Positions 2,370 to 60,659 are shown, counted from the stretch's first letter. The stretch: 64,000 nucleotides of DNA from Candidatus Daviesbacteria bacterium (GCA_016432425.1 CP066688.1:276368-340367); one strand, 5' to 3'. The notes: generated by a model from the letters alone, not told the origin. A program made the numbers and translations.

Positions 2370-2402
2370 CTACCATCTGAAGTGGGCAAAGGCGCGGTTG
2401 GC
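2370..2402 (-). repeat. Synonymously recoded duplicate of the rpsG 3' end (ANRAFAHFRW*)
   Basis: GCC AAC CGC GCC TTT GCC CAC TTC AGA TGG TAG versus in-gene GCC AAT AGA GCA TTT GCA CAT TTT CGT TGG TAA. Confidence 0.95.
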
Positions 2403-2422
2403 CCTTCGACTTCGCTCAGGAC
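2402..2422. repeat. REP-like hairpin, CCTTCGAC-N-GCTCAGG family
   Basis: cccttcgacttcgctcaggac; related copies at 37594, 39119, 41584, 42915 and 47160. Confidence 0.85.
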
Positions 2423-2432
2423 TTCATAGAGC

Positions 2433-2909
2433 TTACCAACGAAAATGTGCAAATGCTCTATTGGCTGCTGCCACTTTTTGCATATCTTCTTTTTTCTTGA
2501 AAGCTCCACCTGTCTCTTTGGCGCCGTCCATAATTTCGGCTGCTAATTTTTGATCAAAGCTATGATACTCTTTATTGGATCTGTCGCGGGAAGCTAAAAT
2601 TAGCCAGCGAATAGCCAAAGTTTCTTTTCTGTCCCCCCGCACCTCCATTGGGACTTGATAGGAAGCTCCCCCCACTCTTCGGGGCCTTACTTCCATTTTG
2701 GGAGTAATGTTTTCAATGGCTTTTTCTAAAACTGACAGTGGCTCGGATTTTGTTTCTTCCTTTACTTGCTCCAAAGCTTTATAAACTAAACTCTGGGCAG
2801 TAGCTTTTTTCCCATCCATCATCACTCTGTTAATCAATTTTGCCACTAAAACAGAATGGTAAAGTGAATCTGGTTTAATTAATCTTTTAGTAGTTTTTCC
2901 TGATCTCAT
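2433..2909 (-). CDS. rpsG: 30S ribosomal protein S7
   Basis: RRVGGASYQVP and C-terminal ANRAFAHFRW motifs; str operon position. Confidence 0.99.
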   Translation of the reverse strand: MRSGKTTKRLIKPDSLYHSVLVAKLINRVMMDGKKATAQSLVYKALEQVKEETKSEPLSVLEKAIENITPKMEVRPRRVGGASYQVPMEVRGDRKETLAIRWLILASRDRSNKEYHSFDQKLAAEIMDGAKETGGAFKKKEDMQKVAAANRAFAHFRW

Positions 2910-2914
2910 TTGTA

Positions 2915-3382
2915 TTATCCTTCTGAAGTTGGTGCTGGAGTAGCGGCCGGAGCAGCAGTTGGACGAGGAGTACTGGCGCCTCTTTTGGTACCATAGCGGC
3001 TGCGGCTAGTTTTTCGCCCTGATACTCCCTCCAGGTCATATTTCCCTCTGACTAAATGGTATTTTACTCCCGGCAAATCTTTCACCCTACCCCCTCTAAC
3101 CAAAACAATTCCATGTTCAGCCAGGTTGTGGCCAATCCCTTGAATATAAGCTGTCACCTCAGTCCTATTGGATAAACGCACTCTGGCTACTTTACGAAGA
3201 GCTGAATTGGGTTTTTTGGGAGTCATGGTTTTGACCAAAGTAACTACTCCCCGTTTTTGGGGGTTAAAATTAGTAACATAGCGGCGGTCTTTGGCATTAA
3301 AGCTGCGCCGCAGCGCAGTGGCCTTGACTTTGCGCATGACTTTTTTTCTGGGATGCCTAATTAGTTGATTAATAGTTGGCAT
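2915..3382 (-). CDS. rpsL: 30S ribosomal protein S12
   Basis: [17 protein letters not shown] and RVKDLPGV motifs; Pro/Ala-rich C-terminal extension. Confidence 0.99.
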
Positions 3383-6300
3383 TAGCTTTCCACCTTTGCT
3401 CTTTCAATGCTGGTAGGAATGAGCCGGCCAATTATAACATTTTCCTTGAGTCCCAGCAATTTATCGACCTTGCCGGCAATAGCTGCATCAGAAAGAACGG
3501 AAGTTGTTTCCTGGAAACTGGCAGCCGACAAAACACTTTCTGTTTGCAAGCTGGCCCGGGTGATACCCAAAATAATCACCTCTCCTGTAGCCGGCTCACC
3601 GCCACCTGCCAAGATACGGTTGTTTTCTTCTTCAAAACGAATCCTATCCACCACTTCACCAGGTAATAGATTGGTATCCCCCTGGGTTTCAATTCTGACT
3701 TTATCCGACATTTTTCTGACAATCACTTCAAAATGTTTCTCATGAATTGGCACCCCCTGTGATTCATAAACTTTTCTGACCTCTTCAATAATATACTCTT
3801 GAGCTTCCTTCAAACCTTTAACCCGCAAAACTTCTTTGACATCTAAGTGTCCGGAAGAAAGTGGAGTACCAGCCCCAATCAACTGACCGTCTTCCACCAA
3901 AAGAGTGGCTGTCACCGGAATAACATATTCCCGCTCATCTGCGGGTTTTTGAGTGGTTTTGACCCGGACTTTAATACCCTGGTCAGTTTCCGACACAGAA
4001 ACTTTACCGGCAATTTCCGAAATAGAAGCAATCACTTTAGGGGTCCTGGCTTCAAATAACTCCTCCACTCTAGGCAAACCTTGAGTAATATCTAGCCCCA
4101 AAATTCCCCCGCTGTGGAAAGTCCTCATGGTCAGCTGTGTTCCCGGCTCACCAATAGCTTGAGCTGCCACAATTCCCACTGGCTGACCTACTTCGACTGG
4201 TTTATTGGTGGTTAAACTAAATCCATAACAAGCAGCACACAAACCATATTTAGATTCACAGGTTAGGGGGGAGCGCACTAAAATTTTCTCTACTCCAGCT
4301 TCAACCAACTGTTTAATAGCACTTTCAGTTAAATATTGGTTTTCTTTGACAATCACCTTACGGCTCTTATCAGTGACATTTTTCAAAGTTTTTCTACCTA
4401 AAAATCTCACCCGGGCATTACCAAAATTGTCCGGCACCGAGAGTTCTAAGCCAGCTTGCGTTCCACAATCCTCGGAGCGAATAATCATGTCATGGGCCAC
4501 ATCAACCAAACGACGGGTTAGATATCCGGCATCAGCAGTTTTTAGGGCCTTGTCCGCCACTCCCTTACGAGCTCCCCGGGCACTGGTAAAATATTCAAAA
4601 ACTGACAAACCTTGGCGATAATTGGATTTAGTGGGCAACTCGACGATCCGTCCGGTTGGATCAACTGACAAACCCCGCATACCGGATAATTGTTTAATTT
4701 GTTCGGAACTGGCCCGGGCGGAACCGGAATCCGCAATCACCCGCACCGGATTATCAGCAGCCAAAGATGCCCAAGTAAGTTTATAAATATCTTCTGTCGC
4801 TTTAATCCAAACCTCTTGAGAAAGCATCTTGCGCTCATCGTTGGTAATTAAACCTTTCTTGAAGTTATCCTCAATCTCGGCCACTTTTTTGTCAGCTTCG
4901 GCAATCAGATCATCCTTTTCTTCAGAGATTTTATTATCAAAAATACCTACGGACACTCCGGCAATTTTTGCTCCCCAAAAACCTAAATCTTTGATGTTAT
5001 CAATCAAATCTACAATCTCCTCCCGGGAGAAACTATTAAAGGCCTCGGTGATTAACCTTTTAATGCCGGCCGCACTTACTGCCTCATTCACAAAACGGAG
5101 CTCCTCTGGCAAAATATTATTGAAAATAATCCGTCCGACAGTAGTTTCTATATTACCTTGTTCAGTCTTAATTTGGGCTAGCTGCCTTAAATTGAGCTTA
5201 TTAACTTGGAAAGCTAAAATGGCCTCCTCCGACAAATAAACCTTCTCTAATTTTTCTAATCTTTCGTCTGCTGAAGTAATGTAAAAGATTCCCAAAGCCA
5301 TTTCCCGGTTAGGCAAAGTCACCGGGGAGGCATCAGCCGGTTTTAAAATATTCTCTCTGGCCATCATCAACTCTCTGGCCTCTTCTTGAGCTTTGGCTGA
5401 CAGAGGCACATGAACCGCCATTTGGTCACCGTCAAAGTCGGCGTTGAAACCGGCACAGATACAAGGATGAATTTGGATGGCATTACCGTCTACCAAAACC
5501 GGATAAAAAGCCTGGATACCCAACCGATGCAGGGTCGGAGCCCGGTTAATCAAGATGGGATGTTCTTTAATAATCTCTTCTAAAATATCCCAAACTTCCG
5601 GAGGGCGAGAGTCCAAAGTATTTTTGGCTCCTTTGACATTAGAGGCCAAACCCTGGGCAATCATTTCCCGCAAAACAAAAGGTTTAAACATCTCCAAGGC
5701 CATCTCTTTGGGCAGCCCCACTTGATTAAGTTTTAATTTTGGCCCTACCACAATCACTGACCGGCCAGAATAATCAACCCTTTTACCGAGTAAGTTTTGG
5801 CGGAAACGTCCTTGTTTACCCCGCAGCATATCGGATAAAGATCGCAAAACATGGCCTATCACCCGGCGAGAATTTTTAGCAGATGAGTCTATCAAAGCAT
5901 CAACTGCTTCCTGTAGCATCCGTTTTTCATTGCGCAAAATAATCTCCGGCGCCCCCAAATTAATTAAACGGTGCAGACGATTATTGCGGTTAATTACTCT
6001 TCTGTAGAGATCATTTAAATCAGAAGTGGCAAAACGACCCCCTTGTAGTTGCACCATCGGCCGCAAATCCGGTGGCAATACCGGTAAAATTCGCAAGACT
6101 AACCACTCCGGCATAATTTGGGCTTGCCTCATACCTTCTACAATCCGCAGTCTTTTGGTAACCTTGATGTGCTTTTGGCCGGTGGATTTGCGAACTTCTT
6201 CCCTTAAAAATGAAGAAAGTTTATCTAAATCAATTTTCTTGAGGATTTCTAAAATGGCCTCTGCCCCCATTCCTACAGTGACAAAATCCGCCACTCCGTA

Positions 6301-7068
6301 TTCTTCTAATTTATAAAATTCATCCTCAGAAAGTAACCGCAGGGGAGTGACACTTTTAACCAAATCAGCCACTGCTTTATAAATACTTTCCAGCTGAGTT
6401 TGCTCTACTACTCCGCTGTCACGCAAGCGTTGGACTTCTTGGCGGTTTTTTAGCTCCAGTTCCTCTCTGGCCAGCTCCATCTTTTCTTTGCTTTCAGCTG
6501 ATTTAGTGTCTTTTTTGCCTTTGGAGAGTGTTTGTTTAAGAGAACTTTCCAACTCTTTGACTCCCTTATCCAAATTTTTCCTGGACTGGTCAATTTTGGC
6601 GGCCAGATCTTTTTCCAATCTTTCCAGACTCGCTTGCTTTTTAGCAGAATCTACCTCAATGGTAATAAAAGAGGCAAAATAAATTATCGCTTCCAAATTT
6701 TTGGGGGAAATATCTAAAATTAAAGATATCTTGGAAGGTGCACCTCTCACAAACCAAGTATGAGCTACCGGAGCAGCCAAAGTAATGTGGCCCATCCGCT
6801 CCCGACGCACTTTACTTTGGGTCACTTCTACTCCGCATTTATCACAGATCACTCCCCGATAGCGAATTCTTTTGTATTTACCACAATAACATTCATAATC
6901 TTTGGTGGGGCCAAAGATATTTTCCGAAAAAAGTCCGTCTTTTTCCGCTTTAAGTGTCCGGTAGTTGATAGTTTCCGGTTTAGTGACTTCCCCAAAAGAC
7001 CAGCTGCGGATTTGCTCCGGGCTCGCCACGGTAATTTTTAAAGCTTCAAAATCCAATAAATCGTTCAT
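3382..7068 (-). CDS. rpoC: RNA polymerase beta' subunit
   Basis: Catalytic NADFDGD motif, N-terminal CYCGKYK zinc finger, [12 protein letters not shown]. Confidence 0.99.
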
Positions 7069-10000
7069 TATTCCCCTTCCTCTTCTTTCTGTTTCATTTC
7101 AGCTACAGACTCTATCTCAAAATCTTCTGATTTTTCTACTTCTGATAAATCCCCACCGCTACCTACTTCCAAAACTTGTTGCATCTGGGCTACTTCTTGT
7201 TTTACTTTCGCAGTCTCTTCTACTTCCACAGCAGAAACTATTTTGGCCCCTAAAGTTTCCACATTCAAGCTCAAAGCCTGCAATTCTTTCACTAATACTT
7301 TAAACGACTCCGGAATCAAGGCTTGGGGGATGTCAGTTCCTTTCACGATCGCCTCAAAAGCTTTGGCCCGCCCGACTACATCATCTGATTTAATGGTTAA
7401 CATCTCTTGTAAAATATGCGCTGCACCGTATGCTTCCAGCGCCCAAACTTCCATCTCTCCTAAACGCTGCCCTCCCATTTGGGCTTTTCCACCCAAAGGT
7501 TGTTGGGTAACCAGCGAATATGGCCCAGTGGAACGGGCATGCATTTTATCTTCCACCATGTGGATCAGTTTTAAAATGTAGGAACGGCCCACTACAATGG
7601 GCTGGTCAAATTTTTCACCGGTTCGGCCGTCAATTAAAACTGATTTACCTTCTGCCGGGAGCCCAGCTTTTTTCATTTCGGCAGTCAAGGCCTCTTCCGG
7701 AATTTTCTCAAATACCGGAGCGGCGATTTTGTATCCCAAACGATGGGAAGCCAAACCCCAATGAGTCTCTAACAGTTGTCCCAAATTCATCCGGGACAAT
7801 ACCGACAAAGGAGAAATAATAATATCTACCGCCTCCCCATTTTCCAAATGAGGCATATCCGCTTCCGGCACAATTTTAGAAATGACTCCTTTGTTGCCGT
7901 GACGACCGGCTAACTTATCTCCCTCGGTCACTTTTCGTAGCTGAGCCACTTTGACTTTAATCCGTTTAATTGTCCCAGTGTCGAGTTCGTCGCCCTCTTC
8001 CCGGGAGAGAATTTGCACTCCAATCACGGTTCCCCTCTCTCCATGAGGCATGCGCAGCGAAGTATCCCTCACTTCCTTGGCTTTTTCCCCGAAGATGGCC
8101 CGCAGCAACCTTTCTTCCGCAGTCAGTTCGGTTTCCCCTTTTGGTTGAACTTTACCCACCAAAATATCATTGGGTCCCACTTCTGCTCCGATCCTGACAA
8201 TACCCTCCTCATCCAAGTTTTTTAGTGATTCCTCAGACACATTGGGAATATCCGGAGTTAACTCTTCCGGACCCAGTTTAGTCTCCACTACGTCAACTTC
8301 ATATTCCTCAATATGAATAGAGGTTAGTAAATCTTGTTTGACTAATTTATCAGAAATGACGATCGCATCCTCATAACCCAAACCATCAAAGCTCATATAA
8401 GCAATGGTCAGGTTTTGTCCCAGGGCCAACTCCCCATTTTGGGTAGCTGCTCCATCAATCAGTAAATCTCCTTTTTTGACTTTTTGGCCGACTTTGACAG
8501 CGGGATGTTGAGAGTAACAGGTTCCTTGAGTAGAATGGACAAATTTTTGGATTTGATATTTATACTCCTCTTGGCGTGAATTTAGCGTCAACCTTTGACC
8601 ATCCACATAAGTCACAGTCCCATCAGCCGGGGCTCTGACCACCCGGCCCATGTTATTTCCCACCACTTTTTCCATCCCCGTCCCCACTACCGGAGCAGAA
8701 GGCAACAGCAGCGGTACTGCCTGACATTGCATTTGAGTGCCCATTAAAGCCCGGTTGGCATCATCATGGGCCAAAAAGGGGATCAGTGAAGCTGACACTC
8801 CAAAAATTTGTTGGGGAGAAACATCCATAAAATTGACATTTTTAGCTTCAGTTTCAAAAAAGTTTCCCTGCTGCCTGACCGCTACCCGTTTTCCCATAAT
8901 ATAACCTTTCGGATCAGTTAAAGTGGTAGCTTCGGTAATTACATAATCCTCCTCATCATCAGCAGTCAGATAGACAATCTCCTCAGTTACCCGCGGCTTA
9001 CCTTTGTCTAAAATGATTTTGCGGTAGGGAGTTTGCAAAAATCCATATTCATCAATCTTGGCATAAAGGGCTAAATAAGTGACCAAACCAATATTTTGTC
9101 CCTCAGGGGAACGGACCGGATCAATCCGGCCGTATTGGGAATGGTTAATATCACGGACGGAAAAGGAAGCTCGGTCACGGGTGATACCACCCACTCCCAT
9201 GACTGACAATCTTCTTAAATGATCCACCTCGGAAAGAGGATTAACTTGGTCTAAAATAGAGGACAGCTGGGAAGTTCGGAAAAATTCATTAATGGCGGCA
9301 ATTACCGGTTTGGCATTAATTAACCCACCGGGGGTGGGTTCAATGTCAGGAGCAATTAAACTCATTCTCTCTTTAATAATCCTCTCCAGGCGTAGCACTC
9401 CAATTCGAAAAGCATTTTGCTGGACTAACTCCCCGGCACAACGGACCCGGCGGTTAGCCAGATGGTCAATATCATCCAGCTTTCCCTCACCTTTAGTTAA
9501 ATTGATTAAATATTTCAAAGTTTCAATGATATCTTGTTTAGTTAAAATTAAGTTTTCCTCACTGTTAGCAATATCCAAACCCAATCTTTTGTTAATTTTG
9601 AAACGGCCCACTTTGGTTAAGTTGTATCGGCGGAAGCTAAAAAACATACTTTCCAAAAGACTGCGGGCGTTCTCTAACACAATTGGGTCACCCGGGCGCA
9701 TTTTGCGGAAGATTTCTGTTAAAGCCTCCTCGGTGCTGGTGGTTTGGTCCTTAGCTAAAGTTAGCTCAACAACTTTTTCTTCCCCCGTATTCACATCTTT
9801 AAATAATTCCACAATTTCTTCGGAGGAAGAAAAACCCATGGCCCGCAGCAAGGTAGTGGCGGCAAATTTGCGTCGGCGGTCAATTTTGGCAGTAATAACC
9901 CCGGTCCGGGAAACAGAAAACTCCAGCCAAGAACCCCGGTATGGCCTAATCTCAGCTTGATACAATCTTTTACCGGAAATGGGATCATCAGTGGCAGAGA

Positions 10001-21224: not shown

Positions 21225-21932
21225 ATATCACACCCCCGAGGTGTGATATTATAAAAGTATGCCGTATAGATTAATCCCTTTCACTAACCAAAACTTCTAT
21301 CATATTTATAATCGTGGGGTTGAGAAAAGAAAAATTTTCTCTTCTGAAAGAAACTACCAACGTTTCCTTCAAGCTCTTTACTATTATCAATTCAGCGGTC
21401 CCAAACCACGCTTCTCTACTTACAACAGATTTCATCTAAAAGAATTTAATAAAAATCCGAAAATTGTCGATATTATCTGTTACTGCCTTATGCCTAACCA
21501 CTTTCACTTATTAGTTAGGCAACTAAGTAAAAATGGAATACAAGAATTTATGAGTAAAATCCTAAACAGCTATACCAAATACTATAATACAAAAAATAAA
21601 AGGGTTGGTCCTTTGTTTCAAGGCACATTTAAGGCTGTAAGTATAGATTCAGATGAACAGCTTTTACACTTGTCACGTTACATCCACTTAAACCCGTATG
21701 TTTCTGATCTAGTAAAAGATTTATCAAATTATTATTATTCCTCTTATCATGAATTCCTAGATTCTACAAAACAACTAGTCTGTATTACACAACCTATTTT
21801 AGATTTTTTCCCCAGAAAAGATGGTTACAAAAAATTTATTAATAACCAACAAGATTACGGTAAAACTCTACATCAAATTAAAGATGCATTAATTGACGAG
21901 GATTAATATCACACCCCCGAGGTGTGATATTA
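21225..21932 (+). mobile_element. Y1/HUH transposase element bounded by identical 27-bp hairpin direct repeats
   Basis: atatcacacccccgaggtgtgatatta at 21225-21251 and 21906-21932, directly flanking the transposase ORF. Confidence 0.85.
21259..21906 (+). CDS. REP-associated / IS200-like tyrosine (Y1, HUH) transposase
   Basis: YHIYNRG, YCLMPNHFHLL (HUH), LFQGTFK and catalytic-Tyr region YIHLNP. Confidence 0.93.
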   Translation: MPYRLIPFTNQNFYHIYNRGVEKRKIFSSERNYQRFLQALYYYQFSGPKPRFSTYNRFHLKEFNKNPKIVDIICYCLMPNHFHLLVRQLSKNGIQEFMSKILNSYTKYYNTKNKRVGPLFQGTFKAVSIDSDEQLLHLSRYIHLNPYVSDLVKDLSNYYYSSYHEFLDSTKQLVCITQPILDFFPRKDGYKKFINNQQDYGKTLHQIKDALIDED

Positions 21933-30824: not shown

Positions 30825-30860
30825 CTAACGTGCCAAACCCAATTTTTCAATGACTAATTT
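30825..30860 (-). repeat. Recoded duplicate of the rpsO 3' end ([11 protein letters not shown])
   Basis: AAA TTA GTC ATT GAA AAA TTG GGT TTG GCA CGT TAG versus in-gene AAG CTT GTC ATA GAA AAG CTC GGA TTA TCA AGA TAA; hairpin gttagc-gaa-gctaac at 30863-30877. Confidence 0.93.
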
Positions 30861-30893
30861 ATGTTAGCGAAGCTAACTCAAGATTGTCACGGA

Positions 30894-31163
30894 TTATCTT
30901 GATAATCCGAGCTTTTCTATGACAAGCTTATACCTTGCTTCTTCTTTTTTGGCTAGATACTGCAGTAATCTTCTTCTTTTGTTGACCATGGAAAGCAGTC
31001 CTCTTCGTGAATGCACATCATGAGGGTGCTCTTTTAAATGAGCTGTCAGATTTTTAATCTGTTCTGTCAGCAGCGCCACTTGCACTTCCGGAGAACCGGT
31101 ATCACCTTTTTTGGTGGCAAACTCTTTTATTATCTCTTGTTTCTTTTTAGTATCTAGTGGCAT
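30894..31163 (-). CDS. rpsO: 30S ribosomal protein S15
   Basis: [13 protein letters not shown] and [10 protein letters not shown] motifs. Confidence 0.99.
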
Positions 31164-42873: not shown

Positions 42874-42912
42874 TTATGATTTTAAAATACTTAAAAACGC
42901 TTCTTGGGGAAT
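42874..42912 (-). repeat. Recoded duplicate of the lepA 3' end (IPQEAFLSILKS*)
   Basis: ATT CCC CAA GAA GCG TTT TTA AGT ATT TTA AAA TCA TAA versus in-gene ATC CCT CAG AAG GCA TTT CTT AGC ATC CTG AAA TCA TAA; hairpin tccttcgactacgctcagga at 42915-42934. Confidence 0.95.
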
Positions 42913-42952
42913 TTTCCTTCGACTACGCTCAGGATTATAACTGCCCCACTAC

Positions 42953-44743
42953 TTATGATTTCAGGATGCTAAGAAATGCCTTCTGAGGGATTTCTACACG
43001 TCCTATCATTTTCATTTTCTTCTTTCCCTTTTTCTGCTTTTCCAAAAGTTTATCTTTTCTGGTTCTATCTCCTCCATATAATTTAGCTGTCACATCTTTT
43101 CTAAAAGGAGAAACGGTCTCTCTGGCAATAATGGTTCCCCCAATGGCCGCTTGAACAGCGATGGCAAAATTTTGCCTGGGTAGCACTTCTTTTAATTTTT
43201 CTACCATCCGGCGTCCAAAATTTTCAGCTTTGCTTCGAACAACTATACTGGAAAGTGCATCCACTTTCTCTCCGGCCACTAAGATGTCGACTTTGGCTGC
43301 ATCCACTTCTCTAAACTCTAAAAATTCGTAGTCCAGTGAAGCAAAACCGCTTGAAGTTGATTTTAATTTATCATAAAAATCAGTTACCATCTCTGAAAGG
43401 GACATTTGGTAAGAAAGCTCCACTTGGACTCCAAAATGCTGCATATTCACAAACTTGCCTCTCTTGTTAACAACCAGATCCATGACTGGCCCAATGTAAA
43501 CCTGAGGAATAAAAATTTTTAGAGACACCCATGGTTCTTTGATAACCTGCATGCTGCTGGGGTCAAGTTCGGCTGGGTTATGGACTATTTTCCCGTCAAT
43601 TTCATATTCCACCGAAGGGACAGTGGCTATTAGATCTACTCCAAACTCTCCTGACAACCTTTCTTGAACTACTTCCGCATGAAGTAATCCCAAAAACCCA
43701 CACCTAAAACCATTACCCAAAGCCCGGGAACTCTCTAGTTCAAAAGTAAAAGCAGGATCATTTAAACGAAATTTATTTAAAGCCTCCTTGGCATCAATAT
43801 AATCATCTTGGTCAATAGGGAAAAGTCCCACATAAACCATGGGTTTAACTTCTTTATAACCAGGCAAAGGTTTTGGCATTACACCTCCGAGGTGTGATGT
43901 GATAGTATCACCCACCCTAACCTTATCTGGTTCTTTTACTCCAGTTGCTATAAATCCTATTTCGCCAGCTCTCAGTTGTTCTGTTGATGTTAGCTGCGGC
44001 GCAAAATAACCCATCTCCAAAACTTGACCTTCAGCTTTAGTTCCTAAAAACTTAATAGAAGACCCTGTTTGGGGAACTTCTCCCTCTACCACTCTAACTT
44101 GAGCTATCACCCCTTTAAATGAATCAAAGAAGCTATCAAATATCAATGCTTTGAAACTTCCACCCTTGGAGCCGACACCTGCGGATTTTGGGGGCGGAAT
44201 ACGTTCAACTATGGCTTTTAAAAGTTCCTCTACTCCCTCTCCGGTCTTTCCGGAAACTAACAGTATCTCTGATGCTGAAAAGCCAAAACTATCAACTAAT
44301 TGTTTCTTTACTTCTTCTACATCAGCATTTGGTAAATCAATTTTGTTCACTACGGGAATTAAAGTTAAATTTTGATCCAAGGCTGAGAGTCCATGGGCCA
44401 GAGTTTGAGCCTGGATACCTTGAGTAGCATCCACTAAAAGTATTGCTCCCTCCACCGCAGCTAAAGCCCGGGAAACTTCATAAGAAAAATCCACGTGCCC
44501 AGGAGTATCAATTAAGTTTAGAGTATATTCTTCCTCAATGACATTTTTTCTATATCTATACTTTAACCTTACAGGTGCCAGCTTAATAGTAATACCACGT
44601 TCACGTTCCAAGGCTAAAGAATCCAGTAGCTGAGGTTTTAATTTATCCTTAGCAACAGTCCCGGTAATTTCTAACAACCGGTCAGCCAAGGTAGATTTAC
44701 CATGATCAACATGAGCAATAATACTAAAATTCCTAATATTCAT
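42953..44743 (-). CDS. lepA: Elongation factor 4 (LepA)
   Basis: IRNFSIIAHVDHGKSTLADR, GFRCGFLGLLH and KLLEKQKKGKKKMK motifs. Confidence 0.99.
   Translation of the reverse strand: MNIRNFSIIAHVDHGKSTLADRLLEITGTVAKDKLKPQLLDSLALERERGITIKLAPVRLKYRYRKNVIEEEYTLNLIDTPGHVDFSYEVSRALAAVEGAILLVDATQGIQAQTLAHGLSALDQNLTLIPVVNKIDLPNADVEEVKKQLVDSFGFSASEILLVSGKTGEGVEELLKAIVERIPPPKSAGVGSKGGSFKALIFDSFFDSFKGVIAQVRVVEGEVPQTGSSIKFLGTKAEGQVLEMGYFAPQLTSTEQLRAGEIGFIATGVKEPDKVRVGDTITSHLGGVMPKPLPGYKEVKPMVYVGLFPIDQDDYIDAKEALNKFRLNDPAFTFELESSRALGNGFRCGFLGLLHAEVVQERLSGEFGVDLIATVPSVEYEIDGKIVHNPAELDPSSMQVIKEPWVSLKIFIPQVYIGPVMDLVVNKRGKFVNMQHFGVQVELSYQMSLSEMVTDFYDKLKSTSSGFASLDYEFLEFREVDAAKVDILVAGEKVDALSSIVVRSKAENFGRRMVEKLKEVLPRQNFAIAVQAAIGGTIIARETVSPFRKDVTAKLYGGDRTRKDKLLEKQKKGKKKMKMIGRVEIPQKAFLSILKS
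43877..43899. repeat. Copy of the transposase-flanking hairpin in-frame inside lepA
   Basis: cattacacc-tccga-ggtgtgatg versus atcacacc-cccga-ggtgtgat at the transposase ends; peptide SHLGGVM. Confidence 0.8.
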
Positions 44744-47121: not shown

Positions 47122-47157
47122 TCATAATAAATAGATATCAATGAAGTGTGCCCTCCA
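47122..47157 (-). repeat. Recoded duplicate of the G5/3D gene 3' end (WRAHFIDIYLL*)
   Basis: TGG AGG GCA CAC TTC ATT GAT ATC TAT TTA TTA TGA versus in-gene TGG AGA GCT AGA TTT ATT GAC ATT TAC CTC TTA TGA; hairpin acttcgccgtagctcagt at 47160-47177. Confidence 0.93.
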
Positions 47158-47193
47158 GCACTTCGCCGTAGCTCAGTACTTTCGCGCTAGATT

Positions 47194-47895
47194 TCATAAG
47201 AGGTAAATGTCAATAAATCTAGCTCTCCAGCCTGCTATTCTGGCATCATCAAAGCCTAGATCTATAATATTTCCTTTGATTGCTCCACCAGTGTCCCCTG
47301 CCACTGCCACTCCGTATCCGGGGACATAAATTTTACTTCTTAAGTTTATAACTTTGGGATCAACTGCGATCACTCCCTTACCAGCTTTCATTCCGATGGC
47401 TGTCCATTCATTACAGCCAGGGCACCTGGAATCATAGTGAGTGGCATAAACCCTCATTTTTTTCCAATATCTAATTTCACCCTCAGGAGTTTGTATACTT
47501 TTCCAGACAATTTTGGTCCCCCGCAAAATTTGTTTATCTTTGGGGATAGTCACTTCCGTGGAGATAACCTCTCTCTTCCAAGGCTTACCTTCAAAATAAG
47601 TAACTTTAGTAATGATCGTTTTTTTACCATCCACCCCTTCATCTATTACTTTTTCAATTTCCGCATCAACTTGCGGATCATCTTGATAAACAATACTTTT
47701 GGCAATAATTTCTCTACTTTCCTCCAATTTTTCGGAAAAACGAGACTCTGTATGGAGGGGCTGGCTGGCTGGCAAAGAATCATTAACAACTGGCTGGTTG
47801 CCAGGAGCCTCTGCTAAAACAACTGTCCCCATCCAACCTTGCTGGAATAAAAATGAAGTCATCACAATTAATAAGGCACCTAGATAACGTTCCAT
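47194..47895 (-). CDS. G5 and 3D domain cell-wall protein (YabE/Sps-like)
   Basis: G5-like EGVDG...ILRGTK; 3D motifs IAVDPKVI and AGDTGGAIKGNIIDL. Confidence 0.9.
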   Translation of the reverse strand: MERYLGALLIVMTSFLFQQGWMGTVVLAEAPGNQPVVNDSLPASQPLHTESRFSEKLEESREIIAKSIVYQDDPQVDAEIEKVIDEGVDGKKTIITKVTYFEGKPWKREVISTEVTIPKDKQILRGTKIVWKSIQTPEGEIRYWKKMRVYATHYDSRCPGCNEWTAIGMKAGKGVIAVDPKVINLRSKIYVPGYGVAVAGDTGGAIKGNIIDLGFDDARIAGWRARFIDIYLL

Positions 47896-54066: not shown

Positions 54067-54067
54067 A

Positions 54068-54667: not shown

Positions 54668-55248
54668 AACTCTAAATTCCCCTTGGTAGAAAAGTAGTAA
54701 TTACCAGTAATAGTAAAAACTACCACCCCCTGATTTAAGCCAATGCCCCCAATATTTAGATCTTTAAAACTGCGGTCAGTTTTTAGATTATTAAAAAAAA
54801 CAGTGATATCTCTATTGCTGGCAGATTGGCCGGTGATCTTGACTTCTGCAACTCCTACCTTGGAGCTTAGGTTGAGTACGGTTAATTTAACTGCGGGGGG
54901 CACTTGAGCAGATATTTGGTTTAAAATATTAACCAAATCAGCAGAGGCCAAACGAATATCTTTAACTGTCGAAAGCTGCAACTGAGTTCGTCTGACCAAA
55001 GCCTCATCTGAGCTCAAGCTTTGAACAAAAGGTAGTTGGGCCTCTACTTCTTCTTTGGTATTTTGTAGATCAGCATCAAATTTAAAACGCGACAAAAAAG
55101 CAATTAGCACAACCGCCTCCACCACAATAACAATGTAGCGCCCGGAGGAAAGTAACCAACGGATAAATTTGGCCAAAATTGGCTCCTTTGACCCCACAGG
55201 ATGAAGCAGGTTTAAGCGGATGGCAAAACCACCTTTTTTGTCGGGCAT
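54664..55248 (-). CDS. pilN: Type IV pilus assembly PilN-like protein
   Basis: IRLNLL N-terminal motif, TM helix, coiled coil and VPPAVKLT...ITGQS. Confidence 0.75.
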   Translation of the reverse strand: MPDKKGGFAIRLNLLHPVGSKEPILAKFIRWLLSSGRYIVIVVEAVVLIAFLSRFKFDADLQNTKEEVEAQLPFVQSLSSDEALVRRTQLQLSTVKDIRLASADLVNILNQISAQVPPAVKLTVLNLSSKVGVAEVKITGQSASNRDITVFFNNLKTDRSFKDLNIGGIGLNQGVVVFTITGNYYFSTKGNLEL

Positions 55249-55294
55249 AAGTCTATTATATATTAGTAATTAGGGGAAAGGGAGAAGGGAACAG

Positions 55295-55567
55295 TTATTT
55301 TCTCTTGGGTGAAACTGGTTTTGCAATCTTGATTGGAGGAGCTGATTTAGATAATCTGGATTTTAGACGAGCAGCTTTGTTGGGATGAATCAATTTGACT
55401 TTGGCGGCCTTATCCAGGGCGGAAAAAACTGCTTTAAGGGCCGCAGGAGTTTTGGTTTGCCTGGCTTTTTTAATTAAATTTTTAACATTGGCGGACCGCA
55501 CCCGGTTACGGGCGGTTCTGATTTTATCTTTTCTTAATTTTTTAATTGCTGATTGGATTATCGGCAT
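55295..55567 (-). CDS. rpsT: 30S ribosomal protein S20
   Basis: MPIIQSAIKKLR...LDKAAKVKLIHPNKAARLKSRL; start reassigned to 55567. Confidence 0.96.
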   Translation of the reverse strand: MPIIQSAIKKLRKDKIRTARNRVRSANVKNLIKKARQTKTPAALKAVFSALDKAAKVKLIHPNKAARLKSRLSKSAPPIKIAKPVSPKRK

Positions 55568-55617
55568 GTCAGGTATCTTAGCATGACTATGGACCAAGTT
55601 CAAGCTATAATTACCCC

Positions 55618-56622
55618 ATGGACTTAAAAATTATTAGACAGAAAAAAAATCAATATAACAAATTAGTAACCCATGTTATGCAAAGTTGGCAGTGGGGAGA
55701 GTTTAGAAAAAGTTTGGGCACCAAAATTTTAAAATATGGCCTGTATAATAAAAACCAATTAAAAACTGCCTTTCAGATAACTTTTCATAAAATTCCTCTC
55801 CTTAATCAATATGTTGGCTACCTGCCTAAAGGCCCCATGCCGGATAAAAATTTAGCCCAGGCTTTAAAAAAAATTGGCCAGGAAAACAATTGTGCATTTA
55901 TTAAAATAGAGCCTAATATTGAGCTGCCAGCTACCACCTACTATCTACCGTCTGATTTCCATAAATCGCCAAAACCCTTATTTACTAAATACAACTTTGT
56001 ATTGGATTTAACCAAATCGGAGGCAGAATTACTTCAAAACCTCCATCCAAAAACCAGATATAACATTAAAGTGGCCCAAAAACACGGAGTCAAAGTAGAA
56101 GAAAGATTCGATGATGAGGCGCTAGATATTTACTTAAGATTGTATTTTGAAACAACTAAACGTCAAAATTATCATGGCCACACCCCTACTTATCATCAGG
56201 CTGTTTGGGCCAAATTAAAAAAAGAAAAAATGGCTCGATTTCTAATTGCCTTTTACCAAAATGAACCCCTAACCGCCTGGATGTTAATTAATTTTCAGGA
56301 CACCCTGTATTACCCGTATGGCGGATCTTCCAAAGCTCACCCGGAAGTAATGGCCAATAATTTAGTTGCCTGGAAAGCTATCCTGTTGGGTAAAAGATTA
56401 AAGTTAAAAAATTTTGATATGTGGGGAGCATTAGGTCCTAATGCAAGCTTAAAAGACCCTTGGCATGGTTTCCATCGGTTTAAACAAGGATATGGAGGAA
56501 AGTTAGTTGAATATATCGGCACTTATGATTTAGTTTTTAACTGGCCAATATATTTAACATTCACTATTGTTGATAGATTAACTCCTTTAAAAGTTTTTCT
56601 GTTAAAACTGGTGAGAAAGTAA
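55618..56622 (+). CDS. FemAB/FemX-family peptidoglycan bridge aminoacyltransferase
   Basis: HVMQSWQWGEFR, YLPKGP, KTRYNIKVA and GFHRFKQGYGG motifs. Confidence 0.92.
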   Translation: MDLKIIRQKKNQYNKLVTHVMQSWQWGEFRKSLGTKILKYGLYNKNQLKTAFQITFHKIPLLNQYVGYLPKGPMPDKNLAQALKKIGQENNCAFIKIEPNIELPATTYYLPSDFHKSPKPLFTKYNFVLDLTKSEAELLQNLHPKTRYNIKVAQKHGVKVEERFDDEALDIYLRLYFETTKRQNYHGHTPTYHQAVWAKLKKEKMARFLIAFYQNEPLTAWMLINFQDTLYYPYGGSSKAHPEVMANNLVAWKAILLGKRLKLKNFDMWGALGPNASLKDPWHGFHRFKQGYGGKLVEYIGTYDLVFNWPIYLTFTIVDRLTPLKVFLLKLVRK

Positions 56623-57173
56623 TGGAAATTACACTGATAATCGTTGTGGGTATTCTATTTGGTTGCCTAATAGGCCTTTCCTGGTTTGCCGGATCTGATG
56701 CACCTTTCGTCCCCACTAAAACTAACCGCATAAAAAAAATATTAAAGTTAATACCTTTAAAAAATAAAGTTTTTTATGAGTTGGGATCTGGCGATGGCAG
56801 GGTGGTAATTGAGGCAGCCAAAATGGGGGCTCAGGCTTTTGGAATTGAACAGTCATTTTTAAGGATTTTGTATTCTAAATTTATTGCCTCCAGGTTACAA
56901 CTTAGCAATACCCACTTTATCCATGGAAATATTTTTAAACAAAATTTATCTGCTGCCCAGGTGGTTTTTATTTTTCTTTTACCTAAAGGGGTAGAAAAGC
57001 TGGAAAGTAAATTAAAAAAAGAATTAAAAAAGGGGTCATTAGTTATTACTCAAACTTTCCATTTTAAAAATTGGAAGCCATTAAAAAAGATTTTAATTAC
57101 CGACAAAAAAGAACCAAATACTTTTTTGGGGCCTAATAAAAAAGAAGGTGAATTTTACCTTTACCAACTTTAA
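56622..57173 (+). CDS. Membrane-anchored SAM-dependent methyltransferase
   Basis: APFVPT and YELGSGDGR motif I. Confidence 0.88.
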   Translation: MEITLIIVVGILFGCLIGLSWFAGSDAPFVPTKTNRIKKILKLIPLKNKVFYELGSGDGRVVIEAAKMGAQAFGIEQSFLRILYSKFIASRLQLSNTHFIHGNIFKQNLSAAQVVFIFLLPKGVEKLESKLKKELKKGSLVITQTFHFKNWKPLKKILITDKKEPNTFLGPNKKEGEFYLYQL

Positions 57174-57240
57174 GTAGTTGCCTGGTAATGTTTGGAAAAT
57201 AACACTTTTTTCAATATTTTGCCAATGGTATACTACACCA

Positions 57241-58419
57241 GTGAAACTTCTTCATTTTTCAGATATTCATATTGGAATGGAAAATTATGCTAAATTAGAT
57301 CCGGAGACTGGACTCTCCAGTAGACTGTTAGATTTTTTTAATACTTTTGATTTTATTGTTGATCTGGCAATTAAAGAAAATGTTGATGCCGTAGTTTTTG
57401 CTGGGGATGCCTACAAAACTAGAGATCCTAATCCTACCCAACAGCGAGGTTTTGGTGAAAGAATTAAAAAACTGGCCAAAGCGGGAATCCCCACTATATT
57501 AGTTGTGGGAAACCATGATACTCCTAATGCAGAGGGTAAAGCCAACACCTTGGATATTTATTCCGCACTGGAAATTGATCATGTTTGGGTCTCCCGGAAA
57601 CCAGAATATTTAAAAATTCCCACTAAATCAGGTACTCTGCAGGTTATTACCTTACCCTGGCTGCATAAAAATGACTATAAAACGGTTGGGGATAAACTAA
57701 AATCTTTGTATGATAAAATTACCTCCGAGAACTCTGCTATTTTTTTATCTCATGCTGAGGTGGAAGGGTCACAGTATGGCTCTGAAAAAGGAATGGCTAT
57801 CGGAACTGATGTGACCATCCCCTTACCGCTACTGCAGGATAAAAGATTAGATTACGTGGCTTTAGGCCATATTCACAAACACCAGGTTTTATCAAAACCA
57901 GGAGATAAACCCTTGGTAGTTTATTCCGGTTCACCAGAGCGAATTGATTTTGGAGAAGAAAAAGAAGAAAAAGGAATATGTCTAGTAGAGATAACGAGTA
58001 ACGAAAAACGAGAAACGACCTTTAAATTTATTCCCACCAGTGCCAGGATTTTTAGGACTATCAAAGTTTCCCTAAAACCAGATGACCCAGATCCCACCCG
58101 GACTGTTATTGCTGAAATTGAAAAACATAAGGTTAAAGACGCTATTGCCAGAATAATAGTTGATATCCCAGCTGATCTTGATAAAGAGATTAAAATGGAT
58201 CTAATCAAAAAAGCTCTTAAAGAAGCCAATTTCATTGCCGGAATTTCCCGCAATGTGGAAAGAAAAGAAAGGTCCGCCAGCTGGCGGATTGACGGCCAGG
58301 AGGAAGTGGAAAGATTAACCCCCATTGAAGCTTTAAAAAAATATTTTGCCGCTAAAAAAATTTCCCTTGAGAAACAAAAAGAACTAGAAAAATATGCTGC
58401 CCAGTTACTGGAATCCTGA
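57241..58419 (+). CDS. sbcD: Nuclease SbcD (Mre11-like)
   Basis: HFSDIHIG, AGD, GNHD, ALGHIH and YSGSPERIDFGE; GTG start at 57241. Confidence 0.94.
   Translation: MKLLHFSDIHIGMENYAKLDPETGLSSRLLDFFNTFDFIVDLAIKENVDAVVFAGDAYKTRDPNPTQQRGFGERIKKLAKAGIPTILVVGNHDTPNAEGKANTLDIYSALEIDHVWVSRKPEYLKIPTKSGTLQVITLPWLHKNDYKTVGDKLKSLYDKITSENSAIFLSHAEVEGSQYGSEKGMAIGTDVTIPLPLLQDKRLDYVALGHIHKHQVLSKPGDKPLVVYSGSPERIDFGEEKEEKGICLVEITSNEKRETTFKFIPTSARIFRTIKVSLKPDDPDPTRTVIAEIEKHKVKDAIARIIVDIPADLDKEIKMDLIKKALKEANFIAGISRNVERKERSASWRIDGQEEVERLTPIEALKKYFAAKKISLEKQKELEKYAAQLLES
58273..58288. repeat. Perfect 16-bp GC-rich palindrome in-frame in sbcD (SASWRI)
   Basis: tccgccagctggcgga inside an otherwise AT-rich gene. 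Confidence 0.7.
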
Positions 58420-58458
58420 TTGTCAAAAGATTAAGTTCCAATTATACTTGCATCGTCC

Positions 58459-60615
58459 ATGATCCCAGTCTCCTTAAAACTTTCCAACTTTACCTCTTAT
58501 AGTGAAAATGTGCCGGAACTGGATTTTACCAAGTTTCATTTGGCGGCCATTTCCGGACCTAATGGTGCCGGGAAATCCTCCTTGCTTGATGCCATTACCT
58601 GGTGTGTTTGGGGCTGGAGCAGAGCTGGGGACAACGCTGATCAACTTGTGCGGTTGGGGGCTTTAGATATGTTTGTCGAATTCAGCTTTGAGCTAGACGG
58701 ACATATTTATACTATTAAGCGCAGACGAGCTATCAAATCTGGCTCCAGCGCCCTGGAGCTTTGGAGTAATTCCCACAACCTAACTGAGGGTACCATTAAA
58801 TCTACCCAGCAAAAAATTATTAATACCCTTCATCTATCTTTTGAAACTTTTAGCAATTCAGCCTTTTTGCGCCAGGGCCACGCCGATGAATTTACTACTA
58901 AGGGTCCTTCTGATCGAAAAAGAATCCTGGCAGATATTTTAGGTCTGTTTCACTATGATGAGTTGGAAGAAAAAGCTAAAGAAAAAATTAAGGAGATTCA
59001 AAATAAACTGCAGTTGCTAAAATATCAGCTACTGGAAATTGATACTGAACTTTCACAAAAAGAGTCTCAAGAAGAAAAACGGAAAGAGACCATTTTGCAG
59101 GTAGAAAAAATTGAAGAGGAGATTAAATCTAAAGAAGCAAATTTAAAAACTCTCCAAGTTGAGCGGGAAACTTTAAATGTAGCCGAGCAACAACGGGAGA
59201 AACTACTGCAAAATTTAACTCAAAATCAACAAGAGCTCAGGGAAATTACTGAGCAAGGAGTGGAGCGCAAAAAGAAAATTGATTCTTTACAGACAGAAAT
59301 CTCTAATCTAAAAGTTGACGAAAAATTATTAACAAATTTAAGTGATTTACAAAAGGAGAAGGAAAATTTTGAAAAAATTAAACAAGAACAATTGGAGCTA
59401 AAAAATCAATTAACTAAAACTCAATCAGTAATCGATCTAAAAAATGCTGAGCTAAAAAATTTGCAAAAACAATTAGATGAGATTGAAGAAAAATTAGCGG
59501 ATTTAAAGCGAGCCGGGGCCAAATGCCCCACTTGTGGCCAAGAGATGAATACACAACATAAAAAAACTGCCGGAGATAATTTATTAGTAGAGAAAAAAGA
59601 GTTAACAGAAAAAATGGCTTTAATTGATAAAACTGCTGAAGAAAAAGCAGTAGTTGATTTAACTAAAAAAATTACTGAGCTAGTTTTTGATAATCAAAAA
59701 TACCAACAGTTAACTGCTCAACTAACAGATTTAGTAGCTTTACAGGAGCAAAAAGAAAAACTGATTCAGCTGACTGCCACCCTGGAAACAGAACAAAAAA
59801 CTTTGGTGGAACTGCGGAGTTTTTTTGTTAATAAAAAATCTCAAGTGGATAAATTAGAAATAGAATTTAAGTCCCTACTGGATGTGAGCGGAAAACTGAC
59901 TCCCCTAAATTTGGAGCTTCAGCAAACCGAAGAGCAGTTAAATAATTTAAGGGCTGAAGAAAAGGAATTGCGCGGCATACTGGGCCAAATTACTGAATTA
60001 ATCTCCAGATCAGCTCAACTAGAAAAACTGCAAAAAGAAAAATCTAGCGAAAAACAAGATTTAGAAAAACAAAAAACTATTTTTGAGGAACTCGCTTTAG
60101 CTTTTGGTAAAAAAGGTATTCAGGCGATGATTATAGAAACTGCCATCCCCGAAATAGAAGATGAGGCCAATAGATTATTGGATAAATTATCCGAAGGCCG
60201 GATGAAAATAGCACTCATTACCCAAAAAGAAACTAAAACTAAAATGGCTGGAGGCGAGCGGGGGATTGTGGAAACATTAGATATTGTCATCTCTGATGAA
60301 ATGGGTGAACGTCCTTATGAGCTATACTCAGGAGGTGAGGCTTTTAGGGTAAATATTACCCTCCGCTTAGCGCTGTCAAAACTACTGACCAGACGGGCCG
60401 GAGCTAAGTTACAATTTTTAGTCATAGATGAGGGGTTTGGCACCCAAGATGCCCAGGGCAGAACCAGAATTGTGGAAGTAATTGATGCTATCAAAGATGA
60501 TTTTGAAAAAATCGTGGTAATTACCCATCTGGAGGAGTTAAAAGAAGAATTTCCAGTTAGGATTGAAGTTTCTAAAAATAGTGGTGGATCTACGTTTGAA
60601 CTAATCGGAGATTAG
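58459..60615 (+). CDS. sbcC: SMC-like ATPase SbcC (Rad50-like)
   Basis: GPNGAGKS, zinc hook CPTCG, YSGGE, IDEGFGTQD and long coiled coils. Confidence 0.94.
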   Translation: MIPVSLKLSNFTSYSENVPELDFTKFHLAAISGPNGAGKSSLLDAITWCVWGWSRAGDNADQLVRLGALDMFVEFSFELDGHIYTIKRRRAIKSGSSALELWSNSHNLTEGTIKSTQQKIINTLHLSFETFSNSAFLRQGHADEFTTKGPSDRKRILADILGLFHYDELEEKAKEKIKEIQNKLQLLKYQLLEIDTELSQKESQEEKRKETILQVEKIEEEIKSKEANLKTLQVERETLNVAEQQREKLLQNLTQNQQELREITEQGVERKKKIDSLQTEISNLKVDEKLLTNLSDLQKEKENFEKIKQEQLELKNQLTKTQSVIDLKNAELKNLQKQLDEIEEKLADLKRAGAKCPTCGQEMNTQHKKTAGDNLLVEKKELTEKMALIDKTAEEKAVVDLTKKITELVFDNQKYQQLTAQLTDLVALQEQKEKLIQLTATLETEQKTLVELRSFFVNKKSQVDKLEIEFKSLLDVSGKLTPLNLELQQTEEQLNNLRAEEKELRGILGQITELISRSAQLEKLQKEKSSEKQDLEKQKTIFEELALAFGKKGIQAMIIETAIPEIEDEANRLLDKLSEGRMKIALITQKETKTKMAGGERGIVETLDIVISDEMGERPYELYSGGEAFRVNITLRLALSKLLTRRAGAKLQFLVIDEGFGTQDAQGRTRIVEVIDAIKDDFEKIVVITHLEELKEEFPVRIEVSKNSGGSTFELIGD

Positions 60616-60635
60616 TTCAAAGGAAAGCGCTGTTT

Positions 60636-60659
60636 ACTTTTGAGGTAGCGGGGGTTTAA
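60636..60659 (+). repeat. Probable divergent duplicate of the sbcC 3' end (TFEVAGV*)
   Basis: ACT TTT GAG GTA GCG GGG GTT TAA versus in-gene ACG TTT GAA CTA ATC GGA GAT TAG (TFELIGD*), with the same register to the stop. Confidence 0.6.

Follow-up and report, generated by a model that had tools for sequence, protein, structure and literature searches.

Gene-less cassettes of about 60-80 bases at housekeeping gene ends of ultra-small bacteria look like an undescribed form of inter-species DNA movement that spares the target gene

In integrons, the left box of the attC site pairs best with the start of its own cassette, and attC has core boxes with a fixed crossover triplet. The integrative element e14 at icd/icdC of E. 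coli rebuilds the 3' end of its target gene and spans 15 kb, as set out in the accessible part of PMC13626634. CGTC-tagged REPs are described as being without a dedicated transposase (accessible part of PMC3733652), and SsnA cuts 5' of its repeat/tag and lowers transformation (accessible part of PMC11893778). In the 64,000 nucleotides of Candidatus Daviesbacteria bacterium analysed here (CP066688.1:276368-340367; the window), several gene ends are doubled around a hairpin in what looks like inter-species movement of gene-less cassettes. No description of such a unit was found in the literature searched, which was covered with strict phrases, in main texts outside subscription journals and partly as extracts.

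Doubled gene ends in the window

A preliminary description of this DNA had reported that four unrelated genes, rpsG, rpsO, lepA and a G5/3D gene, each have, after their end, a hairpin and then a copy of that end with synonymous differences. This architecture was recovered at all four positions, on the minus strand, and the codon counts, stop included, were reproduced (synonymous differences at 8/11 codons in rpsG, 9/12 in rpsO, 8/13 in lepA and 7/12 in G5/3D), with no amino-acid change between the copies in rpsG and one in each of the others. The hairpins of rpsG, lepA and G5/3D belong, as had been noted, to one family (family A), and that of rpsO has the layout of a second (family B). At rpsG, copy 1, the putative cassette-borne replacement end, comprises the terminal 10 codons and the stop (2433..2465) and is followed by the antisense arm GCTCTAT (2426..2432), which forms 7 perfect pairs with copy 1 and 4/7 with copy 2, by a CGTC-REP/SRM-like family-A hairpin, CCTGAG...CGAAGG (2403..2422), and by copy 2, which would be the displaced host end (2370..2402). 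The motif TTTGACTTTTAGG stands at 2346-2358 after copy 2, and in the empty alleles L008-L010 (L-numbers are our handles for loci) the same motif directly follows the stop. The first 11 nt of rpsG copy 1 and the 14-nt arm region are common to the cassette of L059, whose rpsG is 54% identical.

The rpsO unit has copy 1 (terminal 11 codons and stop) at 30894..30929, and the copy begins at the Lys codon, which corrects the earlier account; the arm (30880..30890) makes 9/10 pairs with copy 1, apart from a T.C mismatch at position 4 that family-B modules also have, and precedes a family-B-like hairpin (30861..30879; 2-nt loop, 6-bp stem with TTC loop, 2-nt loop) and copy 2 (30825..30860). In lepA, copy 1 (terminal codons and stop, 42953..42993) reads PQKAF, whereas copy 2 (42874..42914), which has near-modal codons and is presumed to be the host end, reads PQEAF, as do 78/78 other lepA loci; between them lie a family-A hairpin (42915..42935) and an arm with a TGGGG core (42939..42948), an exception in that its fit to copy 2 is slightly better than its fit to copy 1, with homologues in L121, L135/L136, L162 and L164. 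The G5/3D unit consists of copy 1 (terminal 11 codons and stop, 47194..47229), an arm (47184..47193) with 10/11 in-register pairs to copy 1 and 5/11 to copy 2, a family-A-type hairpin (47158..47179) one base off the first hairpin in L309, and copy 2 (47122..47157). On the plus strand, sbcC probably carries a small or decayed unit (60592..60659) made up of copy 1 (60592-60615), an arm and weak hairpin (60616-60635; 6 bp to copy 1) and copy 2 (60636-60659). Copy 2 ends GV*, as do 9/16 family orthologues, and copy 1 ends GD*, as in none; taken alone, this supposed weaker version of the pattern is at chance level (score 19, 1.7 expected).

When the ends of all 811 ORFs were compared with the next 400 nt, six genes reached a score of at least 30 against 0.0 in five shuffled pairings and four (4/811) reached at least 45 against none, these four top scorers all lying inside the window. 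A DNA-only scan, free of protein bias, gave four matches of at least 22/33 identity against 0.5 expected (lepA, rpsG, groES and G5/3D); rpsO scored 21/33, a level at which nine were observed and 1.5 expected. Scanning gene ends out to 12 kb added, past the short cases, only paralogue ends and two unconvincing distant matches. A scan for 5' start replacement showed no excess (18 versus 14 at score 25), and one for orphan cassettes found no non-local gene end adjoining a hairpin, with one 30-nt match after rpsJ.

The antisense arm and the hairpin modules

On alignment evidence, the short 'spacer' proves to be an arm antisense to the upstream copy, with which it covaries. In eight G5/3D units from six genomes, arms form Watson-Crick pairs at 79/88 positions with their own copy and at 49/88 with the downstream copy; at least two pair types occur in 7/11 columns, and the match was equalled in 6/100,000 permutations, or 2/40,320 in a free-energy version, although these p-values and those given below overstate significance because units share descent. 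L311 and the short-site units in L315 and L325 use another junction and are not part of this set. In the stacked locus L309, each arm pairs with the immediately preceding copy, 11/11 twice. When 20 units from several genes were folded, copy 1 was favoured in 15 and copy 2 in 3, with 2 ties; the window's lepA and L135 fitted copy 2 better, and the groES and GT2 cases had no clear arm. Against synonymous recodings, the combined p for copy 1 was 0.037 for the window's own four units, among which rpsO alone was individually significant (p=0.007), and 2e-5 for 13 others, and for copy 2 it was 0.18 and 0.13, respectively. The second L021 unit is left out of the folding and recoding sets, and L107 (a chance match) and L083 (a plain tandem repeat) are left out of these and of the drift and divergence sets. 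Arm pairing in automatic register used clear rows only, excluding among others the window's lepA, L135, L113, L065, L238 and L241. Its wobble tally (G.T 9, A.C 8), like folding energy, does not single out one strand as the active one. Third-position identity between the copies was not higher under the arm (24/73) than outside it (70/159; p=0.12).

The arm had been overlooked in the preliminary description; it tells which copy is the element's. Since the arm covaries with the upstream copy, the mobile unit would comprise the terminal codons, stop, arm and hairpin; the copy downstream of it is probably the host's own end, pushed out of place.

A pattern scan found 34 dispersed family-A hairpins in the 820-kb genome, many within ORFs, and as only 3/34 carry a gene end, most are taken to be ordinary repeats. 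A CGTC/TGTC tag 5' of the stem is present in some copies, including the groES unit, and is missing from the four window units, where the arm takes up its position. The same hairpin module occurs with different arms at ribosomal-protein ends and at tRNA 5' ends, where the units are antisense to transcription. Among 13 new loci chosen on the family-B hairpin alone, nine had copy and arm (two by eye), namely at rpsO, rpsS, another ORF end, five tRNA 5' ends and one intergenic site; L234, L243 and L246 had no clear copy, and L245 is 16S rRNA. A generic family-B scan of the genome itself was non-specific (5 observed, 2-5 in shuffles). RNase P RNA, which we presumed to lie at L236/L242, was not detected there by Rfam.

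Alleles among relatives and the probable displaced end

Comparison with relatives revealed empty, filled, stacked and cargo-bearing alleles, and the earlier idea of minimal gene-end replacement cassettes is thereby supported. Comparison of loci shows that one and the same codon has a cassette in some genera and none in others, that tandem stacks occur, that cargo genes are enclosed in some cases, and that the units invariably face outward from the gene interior. G5/3D is filled in 7/22 other family genomes (L318 counted by eye), rpsG in 8 convincing cases of 99 loci (L019 and L035 dropped as doubtful), and lepA at 3 minimal and 2 cargo-bearing loci of 78; rpsO yielded 0/28 in the locus comparison, yet L239 holds three copies. 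The cargo comprises a RelE/Phd-like pair in L167, a 224-aa ORF in L145 and a small ORF in L020, all unlike integrases as judged by size and sequence. A strict doubled-rpsG pattern was present in 6/401 class genomes and in 0/29 others of the same family, and an rpsG-end pattern was present in no viral contig. The metagenome scan gave no near-identical relative (best lepA 80% aa), so these sites have no precise before/after pair; none of the 15 joints listed out of 362 skips a cassette, and no circle was seen.

As to which copy is ancestral, several comparisons point to copy 2 as the host's: the K/E difference in lepA, a same-genus empty rpsG that differs from L112 by 3 nt in copy 2 and 6 in copy 1, and G5/3D, whose last copy is nearer the closest empty alleles in 6/7 loci (differences mostly 0.02-0.04). 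Host codon usage gave 12/20, the window's own rpsG is undecided or reversed, and each polarity test is weak taken singly. Downstream copies are decayed in L059 and L145. The proposal that recoding is a device was not supported, because the copies diverge as much as ordinary orthologue pairs, 6-18% of which are at least as divergent as the two copies of the window's rpsG, lepA and rpsO.

Candidate mechanism and rival explanations

The reading we somewhat favour is that the sites are gene-less, site-specific mobile cassettes of 63-79 bp, made up of the last codons and stop, a 7-11-nt arm and a REP/SRM-type hairpin, with the arm antisense to the first bases of a carried end from one particular gene. 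Such a cassette would enter where the orthologous segment begins and in register with it, the site being chosen by 65-70% homology of the whole carried end and not by the arm, so that the protein is completed by the carried copy while the end that the host had is displaced downstream; the synonymous differences would be ordinary donor-recipient divergence filtered for a working C-terminus. On single-stranded DNA, pairing of the arm with its own copy would bring both junctions together at the hairpin foot, and the unit would thereby be cut out, probably as a small circle that is later joined in. Entry might plausibly occur by natural transformation, ComEC and DprA having been found in the genome and MutS not.

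A hydrolytic nuclease cannot join DNA by itself, and the best-linked enzyme candidate, by genomic proximity, is a small stand-alone GIY-YIG nuclease acting with host repair. A family-A hairpin lies within 200 nt of 9/30 small GIY-YIG genes, the genome's own included, versus 57/3000 background windows. That own gene, single-domain and at genome position 751706, has a Pfam GIY-YIG match and no informative NCBIfam match; its product presumably has more in common with UPF0213-type proteins than with SsnA. The Y1 gene at 21259 had been put forward as mobiliser. It is RAYT-like (21259-21906 within 21225..21930, plus strand), is flanked by two identical 25-nt CACACC/GGTGTG palindromes unrelated to both cassette hairpins, and is judged to stand outside the cassettes; the accessible part of PMC6006769 does not place it.

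It is unlikely, though the best placed of the alternatives, that no free cassette exists and that transforming DNA from a relative recombines upstream in the gene, its far end being cut and joined at the hairpin foot to the displaced host strand, which strands the host end. Besides the competence genes and the undetected MutS, it gains from SsnA, whose substrates are incoming single strands and which cleaves when the two halves of the hairpin lie on separate strands (accessible part of PMC11893778), and from the window's lepA, which in its last 80 codons is nearest the cassette-bearing L121 (rank 1/66, versus ranks 4-55 elsewhere). It requires, however, pairing between arm and host copy, and this is poor (49/88); L309 and L315 share 23 identical bases across copy 1 and arm where the upstream 270 nt are only 79% identical (mean 74%), and L135 has no such tract. 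Somewhat less likely again is a Y1/HUH (RAYT-like) transposase, such as that at 21259, which would peel and paste cassettes as IS608-like single-strand circles. HUH enzymes do both break and reseal single strands, with bases on the 5' side of a hairpin as guide, the same geometry, but in IS608 the guide has 4 nt and pairs with the target, two ends are required, and no carried target copy is described (all from the accessible part of PMC5934647). The genome has three Y1 genes, yet the repeats beside all three are of another type, which none of the five minimal units contains, and the gene in the window reaches 53 bits where the RAYT cut-off is 80.

We consider it improbable that the sites are what is left of integrase-driven islands that had the gene end in their attP and have since shrunk, the hairpin marking an interior deletion. 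The cargo-bearing L167, L145 and L020 would suit such an origin, as would e14, which leaves icd and an icdC fragment with synonymous differences (accessible part of PMC13626634); random deletion, however, would not yield the fixed register of arm, hairpin and junction across genera and targets, and the three tyrosine recombinases (genome 428, 670 and 788 kb) are remote from the sites. A transcribed guide RNA or decoy formed by hairpin and downstream copy, as proposed earlier, resembles a CRISPR repeat-spacer unit in its lengths only and is very improbable: copy 2 has the sense of the mRNA, it is copy 1 that the arm matches, units at tRNA 5' ends lie antisense, copies decay, and no Rfam family reached cut-off within the window. 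Assembly chimera, or local tandem duplication followed by drift, can practically be set aside for the four strong window cases. Identical copies do occur in L111 and at tRNAs, but the rpsO, lepA and G5/3D sites are bridged by unbroken groundwater contigs (four runs of one study, three of which may be the source of the present DNA), which counts against a chimera at these three, and the same layout recurs across many independent assemblies. The last eight codons of the four cases, pooled, are 8 identical, 22 synonymous and 2 non-synonymous, and with P <= 0.001 for each case, local duplication plus drift is rejected for the four strong window cases.

Returning to the cassette reading, if the unit moves in this way, it would be about the smallest site-specific element able to enter an essential gene harmlessly, and ultra-small bacteria would have a route to swap gene ends and maybe gain cargo behind rpsG and lepA. 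CGTC-type repeats, which lack a dedicated transposase according to the accessible part of PMC3733652, would gain a way of spreading that can be tested, and cutting and joining governed by base pairing of DNA would be indicated. More tentatively, and short of an even chance, the units may be mobile DNA of a separate class, namely single-strand cassettes that have no gene and can be reprogrammed, one hairpin module acquiring a new target when its carried gene end and antisense arm are swapped. In different genera of ultra-small bacteria they would home to one and the same codon of an essential gene and to tRNA ends, build up arrays and ferry cargo such as toxin-antitoxin pairs, as an integrase-free integron counterpart driven by small GIY-YIG nucleases and host repair.

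Comparison with known systems

The unit falls outside each family tested, its hairpin itself being of a known kind, and discovery of the enzyme may show the whole to be a variant form of REP/SRM mobility. As in e14, a coding gene end is present twice, with synonymous differences and one copy a non-coding C-terminal fragment, and the replacement end would be element-borne if the polarity holds; unlike in e14, as far as PMC13626634 is accessible, the copies are 30-38 nt apart, a covarying arm and hairpin define the unit, no integrase stands beside the attachment site, and minimal units have no ORF. Reverse transcriptase PF00078 and IS110 recombinase PF02371, as expected for DGR/retroelements and IS110 bridge systems, were not found in the 99% complete genome. 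Integron cassettes (accessible parts of PMC4889954 and bioRxiv 10.1101/2022.09.11.507474) likewise have one folded site per unit, tandem accretion and cargo, and a circle as proposed here; unlike them, the present units lie scattered over orthologous gene ends, include 9-87 nt of the target gene, mostly lack an ORF and have no integrase over cut-off (best TIGR02249 score in the genome 90.5 bits, cut-off 265). By inspection, cassette junction cores vary between targets.

IS608 of the IS200/IS605 group shares a DNA guide 5' of the hairpin that pairs with cut-site sequence, but has two ends, a 4-nt target-picking guide and its own TnpA (accessible part of PMC5934647), whereas the cassettes have one hairpin per unit, a 7-11-nt arm matching their own copy, and a carried target copy; neither two subterminal hairpins, as in IS200/IS605 elements or MITEs, nor a target-pairing guide without a carried copy was found. 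The repeats flanking the window Y1 gene are not the mobile hairpin, which sets the units apart from the REP/RAYT system of that gene. For the hairpin only, there is a resemblance to CGTC-tagged REPs and NTS-SRM repeats, with which family A shares its appearance, its dispersal as a many-copy palindrome and its enrichment by small GIY-YIG genes, the genome's own gene among those flanked by the repeat; in contrast to REP/SRM-Ssn elements as described in the accessible parts of PMC3733652 and PMC11893778, the cassettes have a carried gene end, an antisense arm and putative site-specific insertion, and their junctions lie 3' of the hairpin, whereas SsnA cuts 5' of its repeat.

Doubled gene ends and their divergence

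The genome is a single contig of 820,589 bp, 99% complete, with the window at its positions 276,368-340,367, and among the named relatives of its rpsG most belong to the Microgenomates; two of the best four are Ca. Daviesbacteria. Pfam confirmed rpsG, rpsO, lepA, the G5/3D protein, SbcC and the Y1 transposase in the window. When the 400 nt downstream of each of 811 ORFs were scanned for a translated, stop-anchored repeat of the C-terminus, 6 genes scored at least 30, compared with 0.0 in shuffled pairings, and the 4 genes scoring at least 45 were exactly rpsG, rpsO, lepA and G5/3D, so that the synonymously doubled gene ends of the preliminary description are real. Next came groES, just beyond the window, and a gene at 145 kb; the sbcC case, put forward as a weaker version, is at chance level when taken alone. 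A DNA-only scan ranked lepA, rpsG, groES and G5/3D highest (4 versus 0.5 expected). Sequence spanning both copies, proposed earlier as a check, was found for rpsO, lepA and G5/3D, whose sites are bridged by contigs from one groundwater study. Inside lepA (window 43175-43223), some 220 nt ahead of the stop, six clustered bases distinguish the genome from the main contig in each of the four runs, possibly a patch of strain-level recombination. Of the six best protein-end cases, five are located at genome 279-349 kb, no more than 93 kb from the minimum of the cumulative GC skew (371.7 kb), which is likely the replication origin, and clustering of conserved genes may account for this location.

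In the final eight codons of the four pairs taken together, 8 codons were identical, 22 differed synonymously and 2 non-synonymously. Duplication followed by drift predicted 4-5 amino-acid changes per pair and was rejected (P <= 0.001 for each); because amino-acid changes are few compared with this prediction, both copies must have diverged while coding. Deliberate recoding, suggested in the preliminary description, is not supported, as copy divergence matches that of ordinary orthologues: gene ends at empty alleles, those without a cassette, differ synonymously in 51-63% of comparable codons, and 6-18% of orthologue pairs are at least as divergent as the copies studied here. Judged from these comparisons, the difference between the upstream (copy 1) and downstream (copy 2) gene ends would be that expected between two lineages.

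The antisense arm and the hairpin modules

The 10-20-nt 'spacer' between copy 1 and the hairpin turned out to be antisense to the start of the duplicated block, and copy 1, this arm and the hairpin form a cassette whose anatomy is well supported. In folding, the arm paired better with copy 1 in 15 of 20 units and with copy 2 in 3, with 2 tied; against synonymous recodings, it fitted copy 1 (p = 0.037 for the four units of the window, 2e-5 for 13 others) and not copy 2. Among ordinary genes, 1.6% have a perfect run of 7 bp, as at rpsG, and 0.4% one of 8 bp, as at G5/3D. In eight G5/3D units from six genomes, compared in a fixed register, 79 of 88 positions paired with the unit's own copy versus 49 with the next copy, 7 of 11 columns contained two or more pair types and one contained all four; permuting arms and copies gave 6/100,000, a significance inflated by kinship of the units. 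At the stacked locus L309, every arm matches the copy immediately preceding. Exceptions are lepA of this genome and L135, and groES and GT2 have no clear arm.

Hairpins of family A, the type at rpsG, lepA and G5/3D, number 34 in this genome, most of them without a gene end and about 22 inside called ORFs. Such hairpins lie in frame within dnaK and grpE (peptide PSTSSG), with a related one in infB (window 39123, 41588 and 33008); another, possibly with an arm, directly adjoins the start codon of what is probably a ribosomal-protein gene (genome 546,896), and one stands 33 nt ahead of a Xer-like recombinase gene (genome 669,904). A search of 250 genomes with the sequence of the family-B hairpin, first met at rpsG, detected it in 13 genomes at 16 loci, of which 3 had shaped the search pattern. 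Among the 13 new loci, one is 16S rRNA, three lack a clear copy and nine possess an upstream copy with matching arm. The targets of these nine are rpsO; rpsS, where the copy is 9 nt long; a further ORF end, with a synonymous copy of 18 nt; the 5' ends of five tRNAs, where the unit is on the opposite strand; and a single intergenic site. Genome G262 carries the module at an intergenic site and has an empty rpsG. The rpsO unit of the window has the family-B layout. Since units are always directed outward from the gene, a DNA-level process is favoured. Similar units, read by eye in this genome, appear to occur at a tRNA-Pro 5' end (tandem hairpins, genome 757,235-757,424), at two tRNA-Ser 3' ends with a common third module (401,350-401,520 and 403,370-403,538), and as an intergenic tandem (246,663).

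Polymorphism and polarity among relatives

Comparison of orthologous loci, as the preliminary description had proposed, revealed empty, filled, stacked and cargo-bearing alleles. Among 1,920 fetched gene ends, 13 scored at least 45 versus 0.6. Convincing extra rpsG copies were present at 8 of 99 loci and the strict doubled-rpsG pattern in 5 of 400 other genomes of the class; empty rpsG alleles lead directly into a promoter-like motif, which in the present genome follows copy 2. For rpsO, 28 loci of the family are empty and L239 is triple. At G5/3D, 7 of the 22 other genomes of the family have a filled allele, and in some of these three or four ends are stacked. A lepA unit of the same type also occurs in L121 and L135/L136, and as their copies 2 differ from that of the present genome almost only synonymously, separate insertions are implied. 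Cargo lies between the copies at L020, L145 and L167. The rpsG and lepA ends are both hot spots for variable genes: an apparent single small-protein family (start MVTIIFESHS or similar) stands behind one or the other depending on the genome (L003, L007, L012, L024, L032, L035, L155, L170). A pair RelE/Phd-like by appearance converges on the lepA end at L124, L139, L161, L167 and L190, with a second lepA end beyond it only at L167. Two further genes, rpoC and a probable rpsI, also end in the copy-arm-hairpin architecture (L077 and L270); at rpoC the copy measures 48 nt and the arm is strong.

Copy 2 is probably the host's own end. In lepA, a Lys is present in copy 1 alone and 78 loci have Glu; copy 2 of L112 differs by 3 nt, and its copy 1 by 6 nt, from an empty rpsG allele of the same genus. 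Profile scores favoured copy 2 in 9 of 13 units scored, and at 6 of 7 G5/3D loci the final copy is the one more similar to the closest empty alleles. Downstream copies show decay at L059 and L145. Host codon usage does not discriminate the copies (12/20), and at rpsG of this genome the comparison favours neither.

Possible mechanism and known systems

Third-position identity between copies was not raised under the arm (24/73 versus 70/159 outside), and therefore the arm does not serve to find the target. Rather, it may fold the unit so that the two junctions come to lie side by side at the base of the hairpin, and the orthologous site would be selected by homology of the whole carried end. With perhaps a single exception, carried ends adjoin their own gene; directly after rpsJ (genome ~273,320), a 30-nt stretch encoding MEQEGVIKK and a stop corresponds to the terminal part of an ORF at 351,160. 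The host possesses ComEC and DprA, and no MutS, reverse transcriptase, IS110 or integron integrase was found in the 99% complete genome. The Y1 transposase of the window, formerly considered as mobiliser, is flanked by its own palindromes, as are two other Y1 genes in the genome, which argues against that role. A gene for a 90-aa GIY-YIG protein (genome 751706) begins 5 nt past a family-A hairpin, behind tRNA-Gln; relatives are present in 58 of 61 genomes, and family-A hairpins lie near 9 of 30 small GIY-YIG genes versus a background of 1.9%. The small GIY-YIG genes of L250-L279 often follow immediately on a tRNA 3' end, exist in several copies and in some cases contain interrupting stops, and in these respects resemble mobile genes.

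Miniature gene-end cassettes are thus a real, polymorphic class, whose horizontal spread is probable. The class is apparently undescribed, no description of such units having been found in the open-access literature searched. The family-A hairpin beside a small GIY-YIG gene parallels SRM-Ssn, a system of a repeat and a GIY-YIG nuclease, but the characterised enzyme SsnA cuts on the opposite side of its repeat (PMC11893778). The cassette would work like e14 at icd, as a minimal attP that brings a replacement end (PMC13626634), shares the single-folded-site logic of integron cassettes (PMC4889954), and resembles IS608 in its guide geometry 5' of the hairpin (PMC5934647), but the units miss a defining feature of each of these three.
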